In this document: positions 1-5,835 of the stretch, in pieces | Position numbering within the stretch: the first letter of the stretch is position 1 | Layout of the letters: each line of letters begins with the position of its first letter | DNA from: a virus | Taxonomy: Duplodnaviria; Heunggongvirae; Uroviricota; Caudoviricetes | Reading direction: 5' to 3' (one strand) | DNA: 5,835 nt | Virus record (IMG/VR): IMGVR_UViG_2671180758_000004 | Notes under the pieces: model-generated | Databases searched by the model: none | What the model saw: only the letters and a program-made list of their open reading frames with translations | What the model was told of the DNA's origin: nothing | Made by a program: the position numbers and the translations under genes

Positions 1-52
1 GGCGGCAGAGCAGTCACGGAGTAAAACTGATACCGCCAAACGTCACCAGAAA
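1..52 (-). ncRNA. dicF: DicF antisense sRNA, copy 1 (3' terminator U-tract lies beyond the left window edge)
   Basis: Minus-strand reading of 52..1 gives UUUCUGGUGACGUUUGGCGGUAUCAGUUUUACUCCGUGACUGCUCUGCCGCC, which I recognise from memory as DicF. It sits downstream of the ydfC-like gene as in the Qin dicB operon and is identical to copy 2 at 1633..1684. Confidence 0.75.
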
Positions 53-375
53 ATTGATAACAGAGGGCGTTGCAGCGGGGTTGTCACTTAAGCGTATGGT
101 CAACCTGACAACCCGGTGTCCTCAACGGGGGAAGGAATAACCCCGCCATACTTACCGCCGCGCCATTTCGCGGATTGCCACAACCGGAAGCGCACGGTCG
201 ACGAAAATTTAACGACAGGCTATCTATGAACCAGCTACCTCGCCGTGCGCTTTCGCGTTATGGTCTGACTTTTCATGGAAATATCCTTTCAGTAAACTGT
301 CAATGCCGGATGCTCACCCGTGTCCGGCGCACGCACTCCACCTCACCCGTGGAGAACTCCTTAATTACTAACCTT
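1..375. repeat. Direct repeat A1: DicF plus its upstream precursor/leader region (copy of 1633..2007)
   Basis: Positions 1..365 match 1633..1997 with only 2 mismatches (276 t vs 1908 g; 303 a vs 1935 g). Similarity decays over the next ~10 bp. The left boundary is not visible because the window starts inside the element. Confidence 0.9.
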
Positions 376-393
376 AGCTTTGTTGATTAGCTA

Positions 394-612
394 CTAACGC
401 GGGTATGTAATCATTCTGGCAATGCTTAATGCCGCTGCTTTTTCCAGATTGGTGATATCCTGCTCCAGAGCGGACAGATTTTCAGCCTGCTTAGCTCTGG
501 CTTCATTGGCCCATTTCAGATCCTGCGCTGCATTAATTTTCTGGTGCATCCACTCATAAAGTTCATCATCGGTATAGTCTGGCGCGATGATGACGGGTTC
601 TCGTTTCTGCAT
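394..612 (-). CDS. ydfC: YdfC-like small protein (72 aa), Qin dicB-operon type
   Basis: 72-aa ORF with GAGGA-type RBS upstream of the ATG at 612..610. Size and position (between the ydfB-like gene and the DicF leader) match the ydfA-ydfB-ydfC-dicF-dicB-ydfD operon order as I recall it. Confidence 0.75.
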   Translation of the reverse strand: MQKREPVIIAPDYTDDELYEWMHQKINAAQDLKWANEARAKQAENLSALEQDITNLEKAAALSIARMITYPR

Positions 613-641
613 ACTGATTCCTCGCGGTGCTGTTTCGCTTA

Positions 642-770
642 TCAGCCGTTAGATTTTGCCGAACTGGAAAGCGCCTGTTTAAATTCGTTGAAGCTGAGAG
701 CTTCTTCGCCTTCGGCAAGACCTTCGAAGTATTCTTCGTAAGCCTTTTCCATGATTGTGTCGAAATCCAT
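642..770 (-). CDS. ydfB: YdfB-like small protein (42 aa, MDFDTIMEKAYEEYFEGLAEGEEALSFNEFKQALSSSAKSNG)
   Basis: 42-aa ORF below the six-frame track threshold, found by manual translation. Its ATG at 770..768 lies 1 nt after the ydfA-like stop (TGAtATG), with a GGTGAG RBS-like stretch. The 42-aa size matches ydfB. Confidence 0.65.
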   Translation of the reverse strand: MDFDTIMEKAYEEYFEGLAEGEEALSFNEFKQALSSSAKSNG

Positions 771-771
771 A

Positions 772-1008
772 TCACTCACCTGAGTTTCTTTCCAGCCAGC
801 GACGGGCACCATTTTCGGTTTTAAACGTTTTGCTTTTGGTATACGTCATCGCGGTGAACGTACCGTCCTGGTTGGGAAACACGCCGTACACCAGAGATTC
901 GTTGTTGCCAAGATCGATAGTATCCATGTTGACCTCATTTCCCCTTAACGCCGGGGTAGCGGAACAAAAACCTGCTGCATAGTTATTAAAGTTGAACCCT
1001 GCCGTCAT
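772..1008 (-). CDS. ydfA: YdfA/YdaF-family (DUF1391-like) small protein, copy 1; 78 aa from ATG 1008, or 51 aa if translation starts at the internal ATG 927
   Basis: ORF conserved in two copies (see 2605..2838). The internal Met at 927..925 has a GAGG RBS 5 nt upstream and gives the 51-aa size I recall for ydfA/ydaF. The long form starts 9 nt downstream of a GAGG. Confidence 0.7.
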   Translation of the reverse strand: MTAGFNFNNYAAGFCSATPALRGNEVNMDTIDLGNNESLVYGVFPNQDGTFTAMTYTKSKTFKTENGARRWLERNSGE

Positions 1009-1063
1009 GTTCTTACGCCTCGGGCTGGCTACTTAACCCCTGACCACTGCCTGGTAACTCGAA
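796..1063. repeat. Direct repeat B1: ydfA-like gene plus 55-bp 5' leader (copy of 2626..2893)
   Basis: 930..1063 is 100% identical to 2760..2893 (134 bp), while 796..929 differs from 2626..2759 at 13 positions (~90%). Confidence 0.9.
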
Positions 1064-1080
1064 TTTATTACGGAACTGTT

Positions 1081-1272
1081 TTAAAGACCTGCCGGGATTT
1101 CGTTATTATCCTGGTGAATAACTTTATCGACCGGGTAACAGTTACCGGGAATTTTCTGTTCGGTTGCTGCAGTCACACACTCCTGCATTGTCCTGTGAAC
1201 ACTGACTGCAATATCAACTGGCTCTCCGGAAACAAGAAAAACTGTCAGAACAAGTGCAAATGCTGTATTCAT
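1081..1272 (-). CDS. ydfD: YdfD-like small lysis protein (63 aa) with N-terminal hydrophobic segment (MNTAFALVLTVFLVSG...)
   Basis: 63-aa ORF starting at ATG 1272..1270, which overlaps the dicB stop as ATGA (translational coupling). N-terminal hydrophobic helix. Size and position after dicB match ydfD. The longer 81-aa track ORF (to 1326) would overlap dicB and is less likely. Confidence 0.7.
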   Translation of the reverse strand: MNTAFALVLTVFLVSGEPVDIAVSVHRTMQECVTAATEQKIPGNCYPVDKVIHQDNNEIPAGL

Positions 1273-1457
1273 TGCCAGCATCCTTTTTGTATCGGACGTA
1301 AACGGGCCAGCATTGAAAGAATGCATATTTTATTTAATAGCTCCCGTTCGTGTTTTCTCTTGTTAATGGCATCTTCAGTAAATACAGGGTTACTGATAGT
1401 GACACCAATTTCAAAACAACCTTCAGACGTATTAACGTTTGGTAATAACGTTTCCAT
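1269..1457 (-). CDS. dicB: DicB cell-division inhibitor (62 aa)
   Basis: Translation METLLPNVNTSEGCFEIGVTISNPVFTEDAINKRKHERELLNKICILSMLARLRPIQKGCWQ closely matches my recollection of E. coli DicB. GAGGA RBS 7 nt upstream of ATG 1457..1455. The 97-aa track ORF is an upstream in-frame extension with no RBS. Confidence 0.9.
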   Translation of the reverse strand: METLLPNVNTSEGCFEIGVTISNPVFTEDAINKRKHERELLNKICILSMLARLRPIQKGCWQ

Positions 1458-1626
1458 TATCGCGTCCTCAACAATGAATTTTGTGATGTGGTGCCTGGTG
1501 CCTCCAGGTGACGTTAACCAGTTAACAATTAACGCCGGATACAGAGAATCCACCCATAACACTGTTTTTGGTTTTAACTGTTCCGCGTGCGCTCAGCCGC
1601 ATTCACCGCATCACAAAATTCACTTT

Positions 1627-1684
1627 AAAAACGGCGGCAGAGCAGTCACGGAGTAAAACTGATACCGCCAAACGTCACCAGAAA
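1627..1684 (-). ncRNA. dicF: DicF antisense sRNA, copy 2, complete with intrinsic terminator (GC-rich hairpin then U-tract = complement of 1627..1631)
   Basis: Minus strand 1684..1627 reads UUUCUGGUGACGUUUGGCGGUAUCAGUUUUACUCCGUGACUGCUCUGCCGCCGUUUUU. It lies between a ~320-bp leader and dicB, as expected for DicF. The exact 5' end (RNase E processed in the known system) is approximate. Confidence 0.8.
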
Positions 1685-2007
1685 ATTGATAACAGAGGGC
1701 GTTGCAGCGGGGTTGTCACTTAAGCGTATGGTCAACCTGACAACCCGGTGTCCTCAACGGGGGAAGGAATAACCCCGCCATACTTACCGCCGCGCCATTT
1801 CGCGGATTGCCACAACCGGAAGCGCACGGTCGACGAAAATTTAACGACAGGCTATCTATGAACCAGCTACCTCGCCGTGCGCTTTCGCGTTATGGTCTGA
1901 CTTTTCAGGGAAATATCCTTTCAGTAAACTGTCAGTGCCGGATGCTCACCCGTGTCCGGCGCACGCACTCCACCTCACCCGTGGAGAACTCCTTAATCAC
2001 CAACCCT
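1633..2007. repeat. Direct repeat A2: DicF plus upstream precursor/leader region (copy of 1..375)
   Basis: See A1. The right end of A2 abuts the RBS of the plus-strand 91-aa gene instead of a ydfC 3' end. Confidence 0.9.
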
Positions 2008-2019
2008 CAGGAGGGTGAA

Positions 2020-2295
2020 ATGTCGACTGAAAATGATGAAATCATTAACTCCCTGATACGCCAGATTAATAATTTTGATAAAGCATTGCAACATGCTGCG
2101 GCGCGTAGTGATATAACTCTTTTAGCAATTTCATTTCTTGCATCTGTTATGGATAAAAATGAAGTCGTACGACAGAGTCTTGTTGATTATATCGACTCGC
2201 TTCAACCCGGCACTTTCAATCATGAGAGCTTCAATCATGAGAAAGAGCATGTTAAGTCTGTAATTAATTCTCTTATTTTGAATCAAAAGAATTAA
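2020..2295 (+). CDS. Hypothetical acidic small protein (91 aa), AT-rich cargo gene; function unknown
   Basis: ATG at 2020 preceded by a strong RBS, AGGAGG at 2009..2014 with 5-nt spacing. ORF ends TAA at 2293..2295 and is followed by an intrinsic terminator at 2323..2350. Local GC content is visibly lower than in flanking repeats. One short hydrophobic stretch (ITLLAISFLASVM), no clear transmembrane pair. Confidence 0.7.
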   Translation: MSTENDEIINSLIRQINNFDKALQHAAARSDITLLAISFLASVMDKNEVVRQSLVDYIDSLQPGTFNHESFNHEKEHVKSVINSLILNQKN

Positions 2296-2593
2296 TGCTT
2301 TTTGTTGCAAAGTAATTTTCAAGGGGTTCTATTCGAATCCCTTTCTTTTTCATTAACAAGCCAAACCCCTTATCAATGATGTCCATTAGATCCAGGAAGT
2401 ATTTTTCATGTAAATCCTGGTTATCAGAGAGCTGCTTCTCTTCGTACAGCCCGATAAAGGCTCGGCGTACGTTACCGGATATATTGTCGATGGTTTCTTT
2501 TTCTACGGTACTCAGGTCAAGAGTCGCCAGTTGAGAGCGAACCACATTCGATGCCATTTCCTGGAATGGTACTGGTAAATCTTTAAATTCCAT
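2273..2593 (-). CDS. Hypothetical acidic protein (106 aa from ATG 2593; 110 aa if started at ATG 2605 overlapping the ydfA-like stop as TGATG); function unknown
   Basis: Long ORF in AT-rich DNA immediately downstream of ydfA-like copy 2. A GAGG RBS lies 6 nt before ATG 2593. Its 3' end overlaps the convergent 91-aa gene by 23 bp. No family recognised by eye. Confidence 0.6.
   Translation of the reverse strand: MEFKDLPVPFQEMASNVVRSQLATLDLSTVEKETIDNISGNVRRAFIGLYEEKQLSDNQDLHEKYFLDLMDIIDKGFGLLMKKKGIRIEPLENYFATKSINSFDSK
2323..2350 (+). terminator. Rho-independent terminator for the plus-strand 91-aa gene
   Basis: Stem GGGGTTC (2323..2329) pairs with GAATCCC (2335..2341) as 7 bp including one G-U pair, with a 5-nt loop, followed by TTTCTTTTT (2342..2350). 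On the minus strand the hairpin would be followed by A's, so it is unidirectional. Confidence 0.6.
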
Positions 2594-2604
2594 CGTCAAC
2601 CTCA

Positions 2605-2838
2605 TCAGTCAGTGTTTCTGGTTAACCAGCGACGCGCGCCAGCTTCAGTTTTAAACGTTTTGCTTCTGGTATATGTCATCGCGGTAAACGTGCCGTCCTG
2701 GTTGGGAAACACGCCGCATACCAGAGATTCGTTGTTGCCAAGCTCGATAGTATCCATGCTGACCTCATTTCCCCTTAACGCCGGGGTAGCGGAACAAAAA
2801 CCTGCTGCATAGTTATTAAAGTTGAACCCTGCCGTCAT
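2605..2838 (-). CDS. ydfA: YdfA/YdaF-family (DUF1391-like) small protein, copy 2; 77 aa from ATG 2838, or 50 aa from internal ATG 2757
   Basis: Paralogue of 772..1008 with 6 amino-acid differences plus a divergent C-terminus. First gene downstream of the predicted early-left promoter, the position ydfA occupies relative to dicA in Qin. Confidence 0.7.
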   Translation of the reverse strand: MTAGFNFNNYAAGFCSATPALRGNEVSMDTIELGNNESLVCGVFPNQDGTFTAMTYTRSKTFKTEAGARRWLTRNTD

Positions 2839-2893
2839 GTTCTTACGCCTCGGGCTGGCTACTTAACCCCTGACCACTGCCTGGTAACTCGAA
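2626..2893. repeat. Direct repeat B2: ydfA-like gene plus 55-bp leader (copy of 796..1063)
   Basis: See B1. Confidence 0.9.
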
Positions 2894-2935
2894 GTATTGC
2901 CCTGCATTCTGTGGGGTGGGGTGGGTGGCAGGTAT

Positions 2936-2980
2936 ATAATGTACTTTGCGTTCATTGTTGTAAAGTACTTTTAGTACATT
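2936..2980 (-). promoter_or_regulatory. Predicted early-left (dicB-operon type) promoter with flanking GTAC-centred operator half-sites
   Basis: On the minus strand: -35 TTTACA (2964..2959), 17-bp spacer, -10 CATTAT (2941..2936). AATGTACT at 2938..2945 overlaps the -10, its inverted copy AGTACATT is at 2973..2980, and the palindrome AAAGTACTTT is at 2962..2971. Sequence-only prediction. Confidence 0.45.
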
Positions 2981-3054
2981 CTGTGTGTAAAAAAATGAGA
3001 TGGGATAAAGTGAAGCACAAACCCGGAGGAAGGCGCTACCGGATTTATGCTGGT

Positions 3055-3474
3055 TTAAGAGGCTTTTTGTTTTTTCTTTCGTGCTAACTCTTCGTAAATT
3101 GCATTGTACTTCTGTTTTTTCTCTTCAAGAGTTTTTAAAAGTTCATCTGTCTCACTGTCAGGGAGCTCGTCCAGAAGGTCAATGATGATTTTTTGTCTTG
3201 GATTTAACTCCTGATAGAAACGTACCTGTCCACTTTCTTCTGTATCCTCTCCCAAAAGATAGGTTGGTGTTGTTCCTATTAGTGTTGCTAATTCCCTTAA
3301 TTTCTCCCGGCGAGGAATTGTTTCGCCATTAAACCATTTGCTAACCGCTTTTGGTGTTAATTTCATTCGACGGGCAATTTCTGCCTGCCTTCCATGTTGT
3401 TCATAACCAGCATTTTCACAGGCTAGCGCAAGCCTACTGGCGAACTCTTTACGCGCTTTATCTTCATGAACCAT
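3055..3474 (-). CDS. Prophage repressor, XRE-family HTH (RacR/DicA-like, 139 aa), no S24 peptidase domain apparent
   Basis: N-terminal HTH-like segment (QAEIARRMKLTPKAVSKWFNGETIP), charged C-terminal helix, AT-rich codon usage. Divergent from a Cro-like gene and upstream of a dicB-type operon. Weak RBS, consistent with repressor genes. Confidence 0.85.
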   Translation of the reverse strand: MVHEDKARKEFASRLALACENAGYEQHGRQAEIARRMKLTPKAVSKWFNGETIPRREKLRELATLIGTTPTYLLGEDTEESGQVRFYQELNPRQKIIIDLLDELPDSETDELLKTLEEKKQKYNAIYEELARKKKQKAS

Positions 3475-3494
3475 AAGTTCAATGATATTCGCTC

Positions 3495-3529
3495 TTGAAT
3501 GTACTGTCAGTTCTGTTATAGCATGTACT
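3495..3529 (+). promoter_or_regulatory. Predicted rightward promoter for the Cro-like gene with operator-like AATGTACT / ATGTACT repeats
   Basis: -35 TTGAAT (3495..3500), 16-bp spacer, -10 TATAGC (3517..3522). AATGTACT at 3498..3505 and ATGTACT at 3523..3529 share the motif found at the leftward promoter. A small palindrome TCACAtTGTGA lies at 3536..3546. Confidence 0.45.
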
Positions 3530-3553
3530 CAAAGTTCACATTGTGAGGGTGAT

Positions 3554-3808
3554 ATGAACCAGAAAACACTTGAAGATGTAATCAAAACTGTTCGCGTTGC
3601 TGTTGTGGCCGACGTTTGTGGTGTCAGCCAAAGAGCAATCTATAAATGGATGGATAACGGAAAATTGCCTCGCACAGAATATACCGGCGAAACAAATTAC
3701 GCTGAAAAAATCGCTCTTGCATCAAACGGATTATTTTCTGCCGATGCAATTTTAACTATTGGCAGGAATAAAACTACTACGAAAAAGCTGATGGGAGTTG
3801 ATTCATGA
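3554..3808 (+). CDS. ydaS: Cro-like HTH protein (YdaS-like, 84 aa)
   Basis: ATG 3554 with GAGGG RBS at 3545..3549. HTH-like segment VADVCGVSQRAIYKWMDNG. Divergent from the repressor. Its stop overlaps the next start as ATGA. The 108-aa track ORF from 3482 would begin inside the repressor start region without an RBS. Confidence 0.75.
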   Translation: MNQKTLEDVIKTVRVAVVADVCGVSQRAIYKWMDNGKLPRTEYTGETNYAEKIALASNGLFSADAILTIGRNKTTTKKLMGVDS

Positions 3809-4230
3809 AAATCAAGCATGAACACATCCGCATGGCGATGAATGCCTGGGCGCATCCGGACGGCGAAAAAGTACCGGCTGCGAAAATTACCAAAGCATAT
3901 TTCGAGCTGGGAATGACGTTCCCGGAACTGTATGACGACAGCCATCCGGAAGCCCTGGCTCGCAATACTCAGAAAATTTTCCGCTGGGTGGAGAAAGACA
4001 CCCCTGATGCGGTTAAAAAAATTCAGGCGTTGTTACCAGCTATCGAAAAAGCAATGCCACCTCTGCTGGTGGCCCGAATGCGCAGTCATAGCTCAGCCTA
4101 TTTTCGGGAACTAGTGGAGACGCGGGAACGACTGGTGAGAGACGCTGATGATTTTGTCGCAGTGGCGATCGCTGGTTTCAACCAGATGAATCGTGGTGGC
4201 CCTGCAGGAAATATTGTGGCTGTGCATTGA
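3805..4230 (+). CDS. ydaT: YdaT-like protein (141 aa), CII-position gene of the Rac-type module
   Basis: ATG 3805 overlaps the ydaS-like stop (ATGA). Size and position match ydaT as I recall it. Sequence-level identity to K-12 YdaT is from memory and unverified. Confidence 0.7.
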   Translation: MKIKHEHIRMAMNAWAHPDGEKVPAAKITKAYFELGMTFPELYDDSHPEALARNTQKIFRWVEKDTPDAVKKIQALLPAIEKAMPPLLVARMRSHSSAYFRELVETRERLVRDADDFVAVAIAGFNQMNRGGPAGNIVAVH

Positions 4231-4301
4231 CTCGCAATATTCATACCGGATCACTTCCGGCAATTTGTGAGTAAAAAGATTCGGTATCAAAAGAGGTGAG
4301 T

Positions 4302-5372
4302 ATGGCTAACGCCTGGCTCAGATTATGGCATGACATGCCAAATGACCCTAAGTGGCGAACAATTGCCAGGGTGTCAGGGCAGCCAATTGCAACAGTGATG
4401 GCAGTGTATATCCACCTCCTGGTGAGCGCGTCACGAAATGTCACGCGAGGTCACATTGATGTCACGACAGAAGATTTGGCAAGTGCGCTCGACGTGACAG
4501 AAGAGGTAATTGATTCAATTTTGCAGACGATGCAGGGGCGGGTACTTGATGGTGATTTAATCACTGGATGGGAAAAACGCCAGGTGCTTAAAGAGGACAA
4601 CGGCAATATTTCGCAAACCGCAAAATCTCCTGCAGAGCGCAAGAGGGCGCAGCGAGAGAGGGAAAGAAAGCGGGAACAAAATGGCGATTGTCACGGCGCG
4701 TCACGAAATGTCACGCACATGTCACGACGAGTCACGACAGATAAAGATACAGATAAAGATACAGATCAAGAAGATCAAAACACTATGGTCCATGGCGTAA
4801 AAAACGCCACGAACCAGGCAGGGGATGTTCAGACCGTCAATCCTGGTCAGCCAGCAGGCACGACACCGGAAGCCGATTCAGCGTATGCGCTGAAAGCCGA
4901 TTCGGGCGCTGTGCAGCAGGTGATGACCGCAAGGCCGGAGCAATCACACCAACTGCAGCAGCCCGAAGCCGATTCCGCCATTCAGCGGGAAGCCGATCGG
5001 GTAGTCCCGGAAAACACCGGTCAGTCTGTGGGACGAGTGGATTATCCGGATGTGTTCGAACAGGTCTGGCGGGAGTACCCGTTGCGTGCCGGAGCAAACC
5101 CGAAGAAATCCGCTTTCAGTGCCTGGAAGGCCAGATTACGCGAGGGGGTGCCACCAGAGGCCATGCTGGATGGCGTGAGGCGTTACGCAAGATACTTGGC
5201 GGCTACCGGGAAAGCGGGAACGGAATTTGTTCAGCGAGCGACGACGTTTTTTGGACCGGACCGGAATTTTGAGAACCCCTGGTTTCTCCCGGTAAGCGGC
5301 ACGAACAACCAGCGTTGTGTGAATCATATTACTGAACCGGATAACGAAATTCCGCCGGGCTTCAGGGGGTAA
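4302..5372 (+). CDS. ydaU: YdaU-like phage replication initiator (lambda O-like role), 356 aa, with a low-complexity central linker
   Basis: ATG 4302 with AAGAGG RBS (4291..4296). Two iteron arrays and an AT-rich tract lie inside the coding sequence, as for ori-lambda inside gene O. Central region is charged and repetitive (ERKRAQRERERKRE, DKDTDKDTD, PEADSA repeats). Confidence 0.8.
   Translation: MANAWLRLWHDMPNDPKWRTIARVSGQPIATVMAVYIHLLVSASRNVTRGHIDVTTEDLASALDVTEEVIDSILQTMQGRVLDGDLITGWEKRQVLKEDNGNISQTAKSPAERKRAQRERERKREQNGDCHGASRNVTHMSRRVTTDKDTDKDTDQEDQNTMVHGVKNATNQAGDVQTVNPGQPAGTTPEADSAYALKADSGAVQQVMTARPEQSHQLQQPEADSAIQREADRVVPENTGQSVGRVDYPDVFEQVWREYPLRAGANPKKSAFSAWKARLREGVPPEAMLDGVRRYARYLAATGKAGTEFVQRATTFFGPDRNFENPWFLPVSGTNNQRCVNHITEPDNEIPPGFRG
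4426..4466 (+). repeat. Iteron array 1: four GTCAC(G/A) repeats in helical phase (4430, 4440, 4450, 4461), plus an inverted copy at 4493..4498
   Basis: Direct repeats spaced 10-11 bp. The 21-mer GCGCGTCACGAAATGTCACGC (4426..4446) is repeated exactly at 4696..4716. Confidence 0.8.
4690..4790 (+). other. Putative prophage origin of replication: iteron array 2 (five GTCACG repeats at 4690, 4700, 4710, 4721, 4731) followed by an AT-rich tract with tandem GATAAAGATACA x2 and two GATC sites
   Basis: Perfect 10/10/11/10-bp phasing of five identical hexamers. Adjacent AT-rich tract with GATAAAGATACA at 4740..4751 and 4752..4763 and GATC at 4764..4767 and 4773..4776. Architecture parallels ori-lambda inside the initiator gene. 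Confidence 0.7.
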
Positions 5373-5412
5373 GTGTTAATTTCTGGTCATGAGGTAATTT
5401 TCAGGAGGGCTT

Positions 5413-5835
5413 GTGGCAAAAGTTTTTACACAAGAAGAGCGGGAAAAAATTAAAGGGCTGATCGTGGAATTCGTACGCCTTAACGGACGAGGCACGATTC
5501 GGCAGTTATCGGATGAAATTGGTGTCAGTCATGCGTCTGTCGGTCGTTTATGCATGGAGCTGGCCGCCAGTGGTGATGTTTACAATTCCGGTTACGGAGT
5601 ATTCCCGTCTGAGCAGGCGCGCAAGGACTGGCAAAACGCCCGCAAAAAACTCTCAAGGGCAAAGCTGAAGAAACCATCTGTGGTTGATCCGGACCTTATC
5701 TGGCTATTACCAGACGGCGAAATACGCCGCTACGACAGGCGCCTAAACATAATCTGTCGCGAGTGCCGGAAGAGCGAAGCTATGCAGCGTGTACTGGCAT
5801 TTTATCAAGGAAATGTTAGGTATTTTAGACGTTAC
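5413..5835 (+). CDS. Hypothetical protein with putative winged-helix/HTH segment, 5' portion only (ORF runs off the right edge); occupies the position after the initiator gene
   Basis: Open frame from GTG 5413 to the window end (141 codons, no stop). AGGAGG at 5403..5408, 4 nt upstream. HTH-like segment IRQLSDEIGVSHASVGRLCMELAASGDV. No Walker A motif in the visible part, so not obviously DnaC-like. Confidence 0.55.
   Translation, partial: MAKVFTQEEREKIKGLIVEFVRLNGRGTIRQLSDEIGVSHASVGRLCMELAASGDVYNSGYGVFPSEQARKDWQNARKKLSRAKLKKPSVVDPDLIWLLPDGEIRRYDRRLNIICRECRKSEAMQRVLAFYQGNVRYFRRY

Follow-up and report, generated by a model that had tools for sequence, protein, structure and literature searches.

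The DNA examined here (the window: 5,835 nucleotides (nt), held in IMG/VR as the Caudoviricetes record IMGVR_UViG_2671180758_000004) is the complete 5,835-bp draft record CYDB01000073.1 (assembly GCA_001283425.1), from a short-read Escherichia coli draft. Its left part carries leftward genes of the dicBF operon, known from the Qin prophage of E. coli K-12, including those for the small RNA (sRNA) DicF and the cell-division inhibitor DicB; its right part carries a repressor gene, a cro-like gene, a gene for a YdaT-family protein and a replication gene. The record and the supplied window differ at one position only, 1063, which is N in CYDB01000073.1 and A in the window; an ambiguity or gap character was here rendered as the base A, concealing a scaffold join. 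On our interpretation of that N, positions 1–1062 and 1064–5835 are two contigs linked by a one-N gap (contig 1 and contig 2). We put at about 0.86 the probability that the window is such a two-contig scaffold, in which contig 2 is an ordinary lambdoid early-control region and contig 1 is half of a second dicBF operon.

The dicBF genes on both contigs

The features of the left operon and the join are the following (identities are to K-12 proteins, in amino acids (aa), unless stated otherwise).

1–51, minus strand: DicF sRNA, contig 1 copy, truncated where the contig ends (Rfam RF00039, 69.6 bits, model positions 1–51 of 52)
394–612, minus strand: ydfC (98.6% to YdfC; phrog_1744)
642–770, minus strand: ydfB (97.6% to YdfB)
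772–927, minus strand: ydfA (DUF1391), Qin allele (100% to YdfA)
930–1062, minus strand: leader upstream of ydfA, at the end of contig 1 and without promoter (identical to 2760–2892)
1063, no strand: scaffold join, N in CYDB01000073.1, shown as A; junction in no collection searched
1081–1272, minus strand: ydfD (DUF1482; PF07358; 93.7% to YdfD)
1269–1457, minus strand: dicB, cell-division inhibitor (PF05358, E = 1.7e-37; 88.7% to DicB)
1632–1683, minus strand: DicF sRNA, full length, contig 2 (Rfam RF00039, 72.5 bits, model positions 1–52 of 52)
2020–2295, plus strand: 91-aa open reading frame (ORF), antisense to the left operon (from the ORF list; AGGAGG, a strong Shine-Dalgarno sequence, upstream of the ATG)
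2273–2605, minus strand: orf110 (110 aa), early-left gene replacing ydfB-ydfC (phrog_6937, E = 6.9e-67; contiguous with ydfA′ in E. coli Ec-U5)
2605–2757, minus strand: ydfA′ (DUF1391), second allele (PF07151; 87.8% to YdfA, 83.7% to Rac YdaF)
2758–2926, minus strand: conserved left-operon leader ending in a G-rich tract (85–87% identity to the racR-ydaG spacer of Rac)

Both DicF copies score above the Rfam gathering threshold of 48 bits. On contig 2, dicB is followed by ydfD downstream of dicF, the two genes overlapping by 4 nt (1269–1272), which is the Qin-type arrangement of dicBF; ydfA′ and orf110 stand ahead of DicF there, without ydfB or ydfC, while ydfA, ydfB and ydfC are on contig 1. 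An earlier note, made from the letters of the window and its ORF list, had assigned ydfA/B/C, dicF, dicB and ydfD to the Qin set. This is borne out by the identities to K-12 (88.7–100%), but the linkage of ydfA/B/C to the immunity region is put in doubt by the N at 1063. The Qin-type and regulatory genes which that note had named are present; it had overlooked the duplication of DicF and ydfA and had mislabelled the replication gene as ydaU.

A probable scaffold join behind the apparent tandem repeat

With two DicF and two ydfA genes, the window has the appearance of a tandem repeat. Segments 1–373 and 1633–2005 differ by four mismatches, 784–1063 and 2614–2893 are 94% identical, and the 133-nt leader at 930–1062 is identical to 2760–2892 inside contig 2. 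The join lies 17 nt past the stop codon of ydfD and, on its other side, 136 nt ahead of ydfA; the two sides have no sequence in common. This duplication of DicF and ydfA is the sole unusual feature of the window, and it depends on one N of a draft scaffold.

A junction query of 401 nt (900–1300) did not reach 80% coverage in any of the 5,426 complete E. coli genomes searched, whereas each half of it alone had matches in thousands of them; nor were the exact junction strings found in GTDB species representatives, IMG/VR or a metagenome collection. In the sister assembly, CYAR01000066.1, an N (position 1204) follows the same end (...GGTAACTCGA / ...CTCGA), but the sequence then resumes at the equivalent of window position 1805, and the DicF of contig 1 runs on into a normal dicF-dicB spacer. 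Six independent genomes agree at these ends: in all of them the leader runs on as AGTATTGCCC..., and ahead of TTTATTACGG, which is on the ydfD side, stands ...CCGGATA or ...CCGGATG, belonging to the exonuclease side. The N in the source record, the join to another coordinate in the sister assembly and the constant continuations in the six genomes therefore identify 1–1062 and 1064–5835 as two contigs.

Scaffolders write a single N where the predicted gap is zero or negative and the ends show no overlap. A plausible source for the link is the 133-nt leader with which contig 1 ends, in that read pairs from the identical leader and promoter region of contig 2 would connect both contigs, and such a repeat-induced link probably set contig 1 beside contig 2. 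The two DicF copies carry different single-nucleotide polymorphism (SNP) alleles: 1633–2005 is nearest to the prophages of Ec-U5 and 14EC020, 1–373 to that of strain Z1323HEC0108. Since E. coli genomes have dicBF DNA at a median of two locations each (up to ten), contig 1 comes most simply, and most probably, from another prophage of the same strain. It would be the promoter-proximal half (leader, ydfA, ydfB, ydfC, DicF) of a second, Qin-like dicBF operon, and its true neighbour is expected to be a second immunity region preceded by ...CTCGAAGTATTGCCC.

A real tandem was our first reading, dropped once the junction searches had proved negative and the source record had shown an N at the join. 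Here, an illegitimate join 17 nt past ydfD would set a promoterless leader-ydfA-ydfB-ydfC-DicF segment downstream, so that one left operon holds two DicF genes and two ydfA alleles; if it were real, a single left-operon transcript would yield two DicF copies, a naturally occurring change in the dosage of a toxic sRNA that inhibits division. Order and orientation of the blocks do agree between the two related assemblies, the join does not have shared sequence of the type that yields a de Bruijn chimera, and a phage genome could accommodate 1.6 kb of extra DNA. Yet the stretch over the novel junction is broken by the N, the same end is linked elsewhere in the sister assembly, and the junction is missing from the complete genomes and the three other collections; the differing alleles of the copies, moreover, exclude a simple recent duplication. 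From what is generally known of scaffolders and gap fillers, bridging reads should have let gap closing remove the N. We consider a real tandem very unlikely.

Slightly less probable still is a scaffold whose order is right and whose N stands for a large unsequenced gap, for instance where two lambdoid prophages lie near each other and the contigs are at their edges. The orientation would fit a prophage with the order DicF-ydfCBA-leader-immunity region upstream of another beginning with int-xis-exonuclease-ydfD, as in the layouts of relatives. It is common experience, against this, that distances of tens of kilobases are beyond the reach of short-insert scaffolding and that a one-N gap reflects a predicted zero or negative distance.

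Several points weigh against the two-contig scaffold that we prefer. That the N marks a join is an interpretation, and a gap of one N might in principle conceal a true adjacency; the two related assemblies put contig 1 on the same side of contig 2, in the same orientation; the second prophage is deduced from data limited to this one scaffold of the assembly. For contig 2, the repressor–operator binding, leaderless translation and non-inducibility by SOS proposed below are argued from homology. More generally, a short draft scaffold from a multi-copy prophage region can mimic a striking mosaic or duplication, and here the key adjacency is only an N displayed as a base in the supplied window. 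Other short prophage scaffolds of the same sequencing project may carry similar repeat-induced joins.

An HK022-like immunity cassette on contig 2

The immunity region of contig 2 and the gene following it comprise these features.

2936–2978, minus strand: PL-like promoter (−35 TTTACA at 2964..2959, −10 CATTAT at 2941..2936; promoter scan; matching the pL/oL annotation of HK022, X16093)
2940–2954: OL site TGTACTTTGCGTTCA, putative operator with a counterpart in X16093
2964–2978: OL site AGTACTTTTAGTACA, putative operator with a counterpart in X16093
3055–3474, minus strand: CI-type repressor, 139 aa (in Pfam, HTH_3 only; HK022-like helix-turn-helix (HTH) domain and DicA-like C-terminal tail)
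3467–3538: OR region, three 15-bp putative operator sites
3467–3481: OR site TGAACCATAAGTTCA, identical to HK022 oR sites and covering the repressor ATG
3500–3514: OR site TGTACTGTCAGTTCT, putative operator with a counterpart in X16093
3524–3538: OR site TGTACTCAAAGTTCA, putative operator with a counterpart in X16093
3554–3808, plus strand: cro-like regulator (60% identity, 44/73, to HK022 Cro)
3798–3815, cro/ydaT junction: YdaT operator TTGATTcatgaaAATCAA, a perfect match to TTGATT-N6-AATCAA, at the right joint of the immunity cassette
3805–4230, plus strand: YdaT, CII analogue (PF06254 at 39.1 bits; cut-off 21)

The repressor resembles the N-terminal domain of HK022 CI at residues 4–75 (58.3% identity) and the C-terminal tail of DicA at residues 90–137 (32% identity). 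Over the whole protein, the similarity to DicA amounts to 28.6% over 112 aa, and a DicA-family repressor over the full length was set aside: only the tail fits, while the N-terminal domain is HK022-like. The match to RacR is confined to a 33-aa HTH stretch (residues 30–62, 36% identity). HK022 CI has a long C-terminal domain, which is the RecA-dependent self-cleavage domain; the 139-aa repressor has the short DicA-like tail instead, without a Peptidase_S24 match in Pfam and without a match to the C-terminal domain of HK022 CI, the alignment ending at residue 102. The earlier description of this repressor as AT-rich and of intermediate length holds (139 aa; G+C content 40.5% against 47.5% for the window). 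The protein appears to be a domain hybrid, and an identical one, WP_000233320.1, occurs in three RefSeq prophages examined (HCP5S3_I2, 14EC020 and Ec-U5).

The five putative operator sites map one-to-one by position to those at PL, PR and the repressor start of HK022, and one of them is identical. Both OL sites overlap the PL-like promoter, whose −35 element TTTACA is the same as in HK022, and the OR sites at 3500–3514 and 3524–3538 flank a PR-like promoter, TTGAAT/TATAGC. The 15-bp sites, backed by the HK022 annotation, replace a 19-bp operator consensus that had been built on the window's own sites. The OL sequences of strains 300709 and Z1323HEC0108 change together with the repressor type. 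The promoter scan also places the end of a PRM-like promoter 8 nt ahead of the repressor ATG, which suggests a leaderless repressor message. Leaderless messages have been shown for lambda cI and PaaR2 (PMC8630535).

The cro-like protein has no significant match to Rac YdaS (BLASTP E = 1.5 over 18 aa). In a sensitive search of phage records, window positions 3314–3723 showed about 71% DNA identity to the cI-OR-cro region of HK022, HK75 and O276. By the homology and arrangement of CI, Cro and operators, we class the immunity cassette as HK022-like, not Rac-like. Given the DNA identity of about 71%, its immunity specificity probably differs from that of HK022. Where HK022 has nun and a cII of the lambda type, the window has the dicBF operon and YdaT.

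The YdaT protein is about 97% identical to PDB 3c4r and matches 8bt1, the YdaT of CP-933P, with E = 1.8e-80. The operator TTGATT-N6-AATCAA has been published, with footprinting in CP-933P at the cro/ydaT junction (PMC9986795), and YdaS and YdaT have been described as Cro and CII analogues (PMC8630535). In the scan for this motif, 0.47 sites are expected by chance at up to two mismatches; a second site, 2278–2295, has two mismatches and was taken as a chance match.

A common lambdoid prophage type

The same gene order, with one dicBF operon, is found in phage Tritos (OV696610) and in the prophages of 14EC020, Ec-U5 and HCP5S3_I2: int-xis-exonuclease-ydfD-dicB-DicF-(ydfC-ydfB or orf106)-ydfA-repressor, then cro-YdaT-replisome organiser-DUF977. 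Over the parts in common with the window, Tritos and its equivalents have 95–99% DNA identity, and the RefSeq genomes among them encode the same repressor (WP_000233320.1) and Cro (WP_001072337.1) proteins; none has the ydfD-to-leader junction. The Ec-U5 prophage is collinear with 1063–4219 (97.1% overall, 99.1% over 1064–3060) but carries a different replication gene, homology being lost over 4220–5309. Tritos and 14EC020 have ydfB-ydfC where contig 2 has orf110 and the 91-aa ORF. Among the complete E. coli genomes, coverage of at least 80% was reached by the whole window in 190, by 1064–3060 in 196 and by 2840–5835 in 329.

Two prophages with other repressors, those of 300709 (LexA-family repressor) and Z1323HEC0108 (WP_000362152.1), share the dicBF leader up to about 2926; past that point they have palindromic operators of their own, and homology is back at 3794–3799, at the YdaT operator. 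The immunity cassette therefore extends over about 2927–3793. As judged from these comparisons, the module joints at about 2927, 3794 and 4220 are the usual lambdoid exchange points.

The prophage CP-933P/Sp12 of E. coli O157:H7, with its PaaR2-YdaS-YdaT regulators, has YdaT and the perfect operator at the cro/ydaT junction in common with the window, and also carries dicBF. It differs in its three-gene operon paaR2-paaA2-parE2: paaA2-parE2 do not follow the repressor in the window, where no ORF lies between the repressor stop (3055) and PL. That dicBF occurs in several prophage contexts (including CP-933), with more than one copy per strain, is known from a 2016 report (PMC5069750).

We accordingly regard contig 2 as the early-control region of a common E. 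coli lambdoid prophage type, and its combination of modules as that of an established, already known lineage rather than of a local recombinant. From this region, the dicBF operon emerges as the standard early-left operon of a widespread E. coli lambdoid phage family with interchangeable immunity cassettes, of which K-12 Qin is a decayed member and not the reference type. The window leaves current understanding unchanged.

Comparison with the Qin and Rac prophages

The earlier note had seen in the window a recombinant lambdoid prophage in which a Qin-type dicB operon is joined to a Rac-type racR-ydaS-ydaT-ydaU module, DicF and DicB being placed under a RacR-like switch, and had proposed a comparison of each module with Qin and Rac of K-12. 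In that comparison, Qin-like DNA (97–98%) was found over the dicBF genes only: the identity to Qin is 98.0% over 1–965 (from DicF to a point 38 nt ahead of ydfA), 97.0% over 1063–2005 (ydfD, dicB, DicF and upstream sequence) and 91.8% over 2626–2795 (ydfA′), with no match elsewhere. Qin has the same operon order, a repressor gene upstream in the same orientation and the DicA-like repressor tail. It differs in that its dicA, dicC, ydfX and ydfW have no DNA counterpart in the window, the leaders diverge from 38 nt ahead of the ydfA start codon, ydfB and ydfC are missing from contig 2, and the DNA-binding domain of the repressor and the operators are HK022-like.

Identity to Rac DNA is restricted to short stretches (79–87%; ydfA and ydaF are 86% identical) and to 30 nt at 3799–3828, at the YdaT operator. 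Some of the resemblance to Rac is genuine: the order repressor, cro-like gene, YdaT-family gene, replication gene is that of Rac, the YdaT protein is 32.6% identical to Rac YdaT over its full length, the leader on the DUF1391 side is conserved (87% identity of 2770–2928 to the racR-ydaG spacer), as is the operator, and the Qin-like DNA stops abruptly. The proteins that would define a Rac-type module are, nevertheless, not those of Rac. For RacR, YdaS, YdaU and YdaV, protein comparison yielded generic HTH similarity and a 19-aa C-terminal tail only; the repressor has the HK022-like N-terminal domain and the DicA-like tail, the Cro is HK022-like, the replication protein is not a DUF1376/YdaU protein, and the gene in the place of ydaV is a DUF977 gene. 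Of the module, a YdaT-family gene after cro is what was found. Between 2929 and 5835, there is no Rac DNA besides the 30-nt operator piece, and the left operon here is that of DicF and DicB, whereas Rac has kilS/kilR.

Nor is a YdaT-family gene peculiar to Rac. The ydfX gene of K-12 Qin (4347–4637 in our Qin extract) encodes a protein with 35.8% identity over 95 aa to the N-terminal 83 aa of this YdaT (E = 8e-7), which suggests that YdfX is a truncated remnant of a YdaT/CII analogue downstream of dicC. As Qin owns such a remnant, cro-ydaT does not separate Rac from Qin.

Qin and Rac were both rejected as donors of the right half, in which no DNA match goes past short conserved pieces; we take neither of them to be the donor of the immunity or replication modules. 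The early region is indeed a mosaic, as the earlier note had it, with Qin identity ending 38 nt upstream of ydfA, but the partner is not Rac. The idea of a local recombinant has to be abandoned as well: in Tritos, as in 190 complete genomes, coverage of the window reaches 80% or more, which comes near to the uniformly high identity to a single well-characterised prophage that the note itself had named as speaking against it. With the same combination in Tritos and at least 190 genomes, a Qin–Rac recombinant ranks with the large unsequenced gap among the least probable readings. The earlier observation is thus partly confirmed and its interpretation partly supported; the switch is of HK022/DicA type with a CP-933P-type YdaT.

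Proposed regulation

In the scheme we propose, the repressor would bind operators of the type TGTAC-N5-GTWCA, 15 bp in length, three at OR and two at OL, as predicted by homology. Bound at OR, it would shut off the PR operon (cro, YdaT, replication initiator, DUF977); bound at OL, it would shut off the PL operon (ydfA′, orf110, DicF, dicB and ydfD, then the exonuclease, xis and int, as in the relatives). Cro would compete at OR, and YdaT would take the role of CII through its operator where cro meets ydaT (PMC8630535, PMC9986795). We infer the use of PL, PR and PRM from the same resemblances. Upon derepression, the PL transcript would, as in K-12 Qin, yield the DicF sRNA and DicB, both of which arrest FtsZ-dependent division; the release of DicF by RNase E processing together with termination or RNase III cleavage has been established for Qin (cited in PMC5069750).

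The control of DicF and DicB by the immunity switch, as envisaged in the earlier note, is upheld in so far as the leftward operon of contig 2 lies downstream of a CI-type repressor other than DicA; that repressor is not RacR-like. Because it has no cleavage domain, control of the prophage is expected to be SOS-independent.

Replication gene and minor features

To the right of YdaT, contig 2 ends with two genes.

4302–5372, plus strand: replication initiator/replisome organiser, 358 aa (phrog_3729, E = 3e-256)
5413–5835, plus strand: DUF977/Ren-like gene, running to the contig end (PF06163; phrog_142)

The replication protein has no DUF1376 or other Pfam match, and its match to K-12 YdaU is confined to the last 19 aa. 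GTCACG iterons with a spacing of about 10 nt form two clusters within its gene (4430–4468 and 4690–4738), and after them, still inside the gene, lies an A+T-rich repeat of the type GATAAAGATACAGAT (about 4740–4790). Iterons and A+T-rich repeat probably make up an internal phage origin, as in lambda O.

In the left operon, segment 2006–2625 (orf110 and the antisense 91-aa ORF; 39% GC) is an alternative to ydfB-ydfC, although the prophage of strain HCP5S3_I2 has both. The 91-aa ORF, which had no Pfam or PHROG match and is annotated as hypothetical in relatives (91 or 145 aa), shares 23 nt with the 3′ end of orf110 and occupies the position of sieB in Rac.

The spacer between the repressor gene and ydfA′ measures 298 nt. 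Within it, at 2915–2930, the G-rich tract (GGGGTGGGGTGGGTGG) varies in length among relatives. The left end of the immunity cassette falls exactly there in all comparators, and exchange may preferentially occur at this tract. Finally, the DicF-dicB spacer (1473–1637) is 79% identical to the kilS/kilR leader of K-12 Rac (4250–4416 in our Rac extract), and thus the division inhibitors DicB and KilR stand behind homologous leaders.

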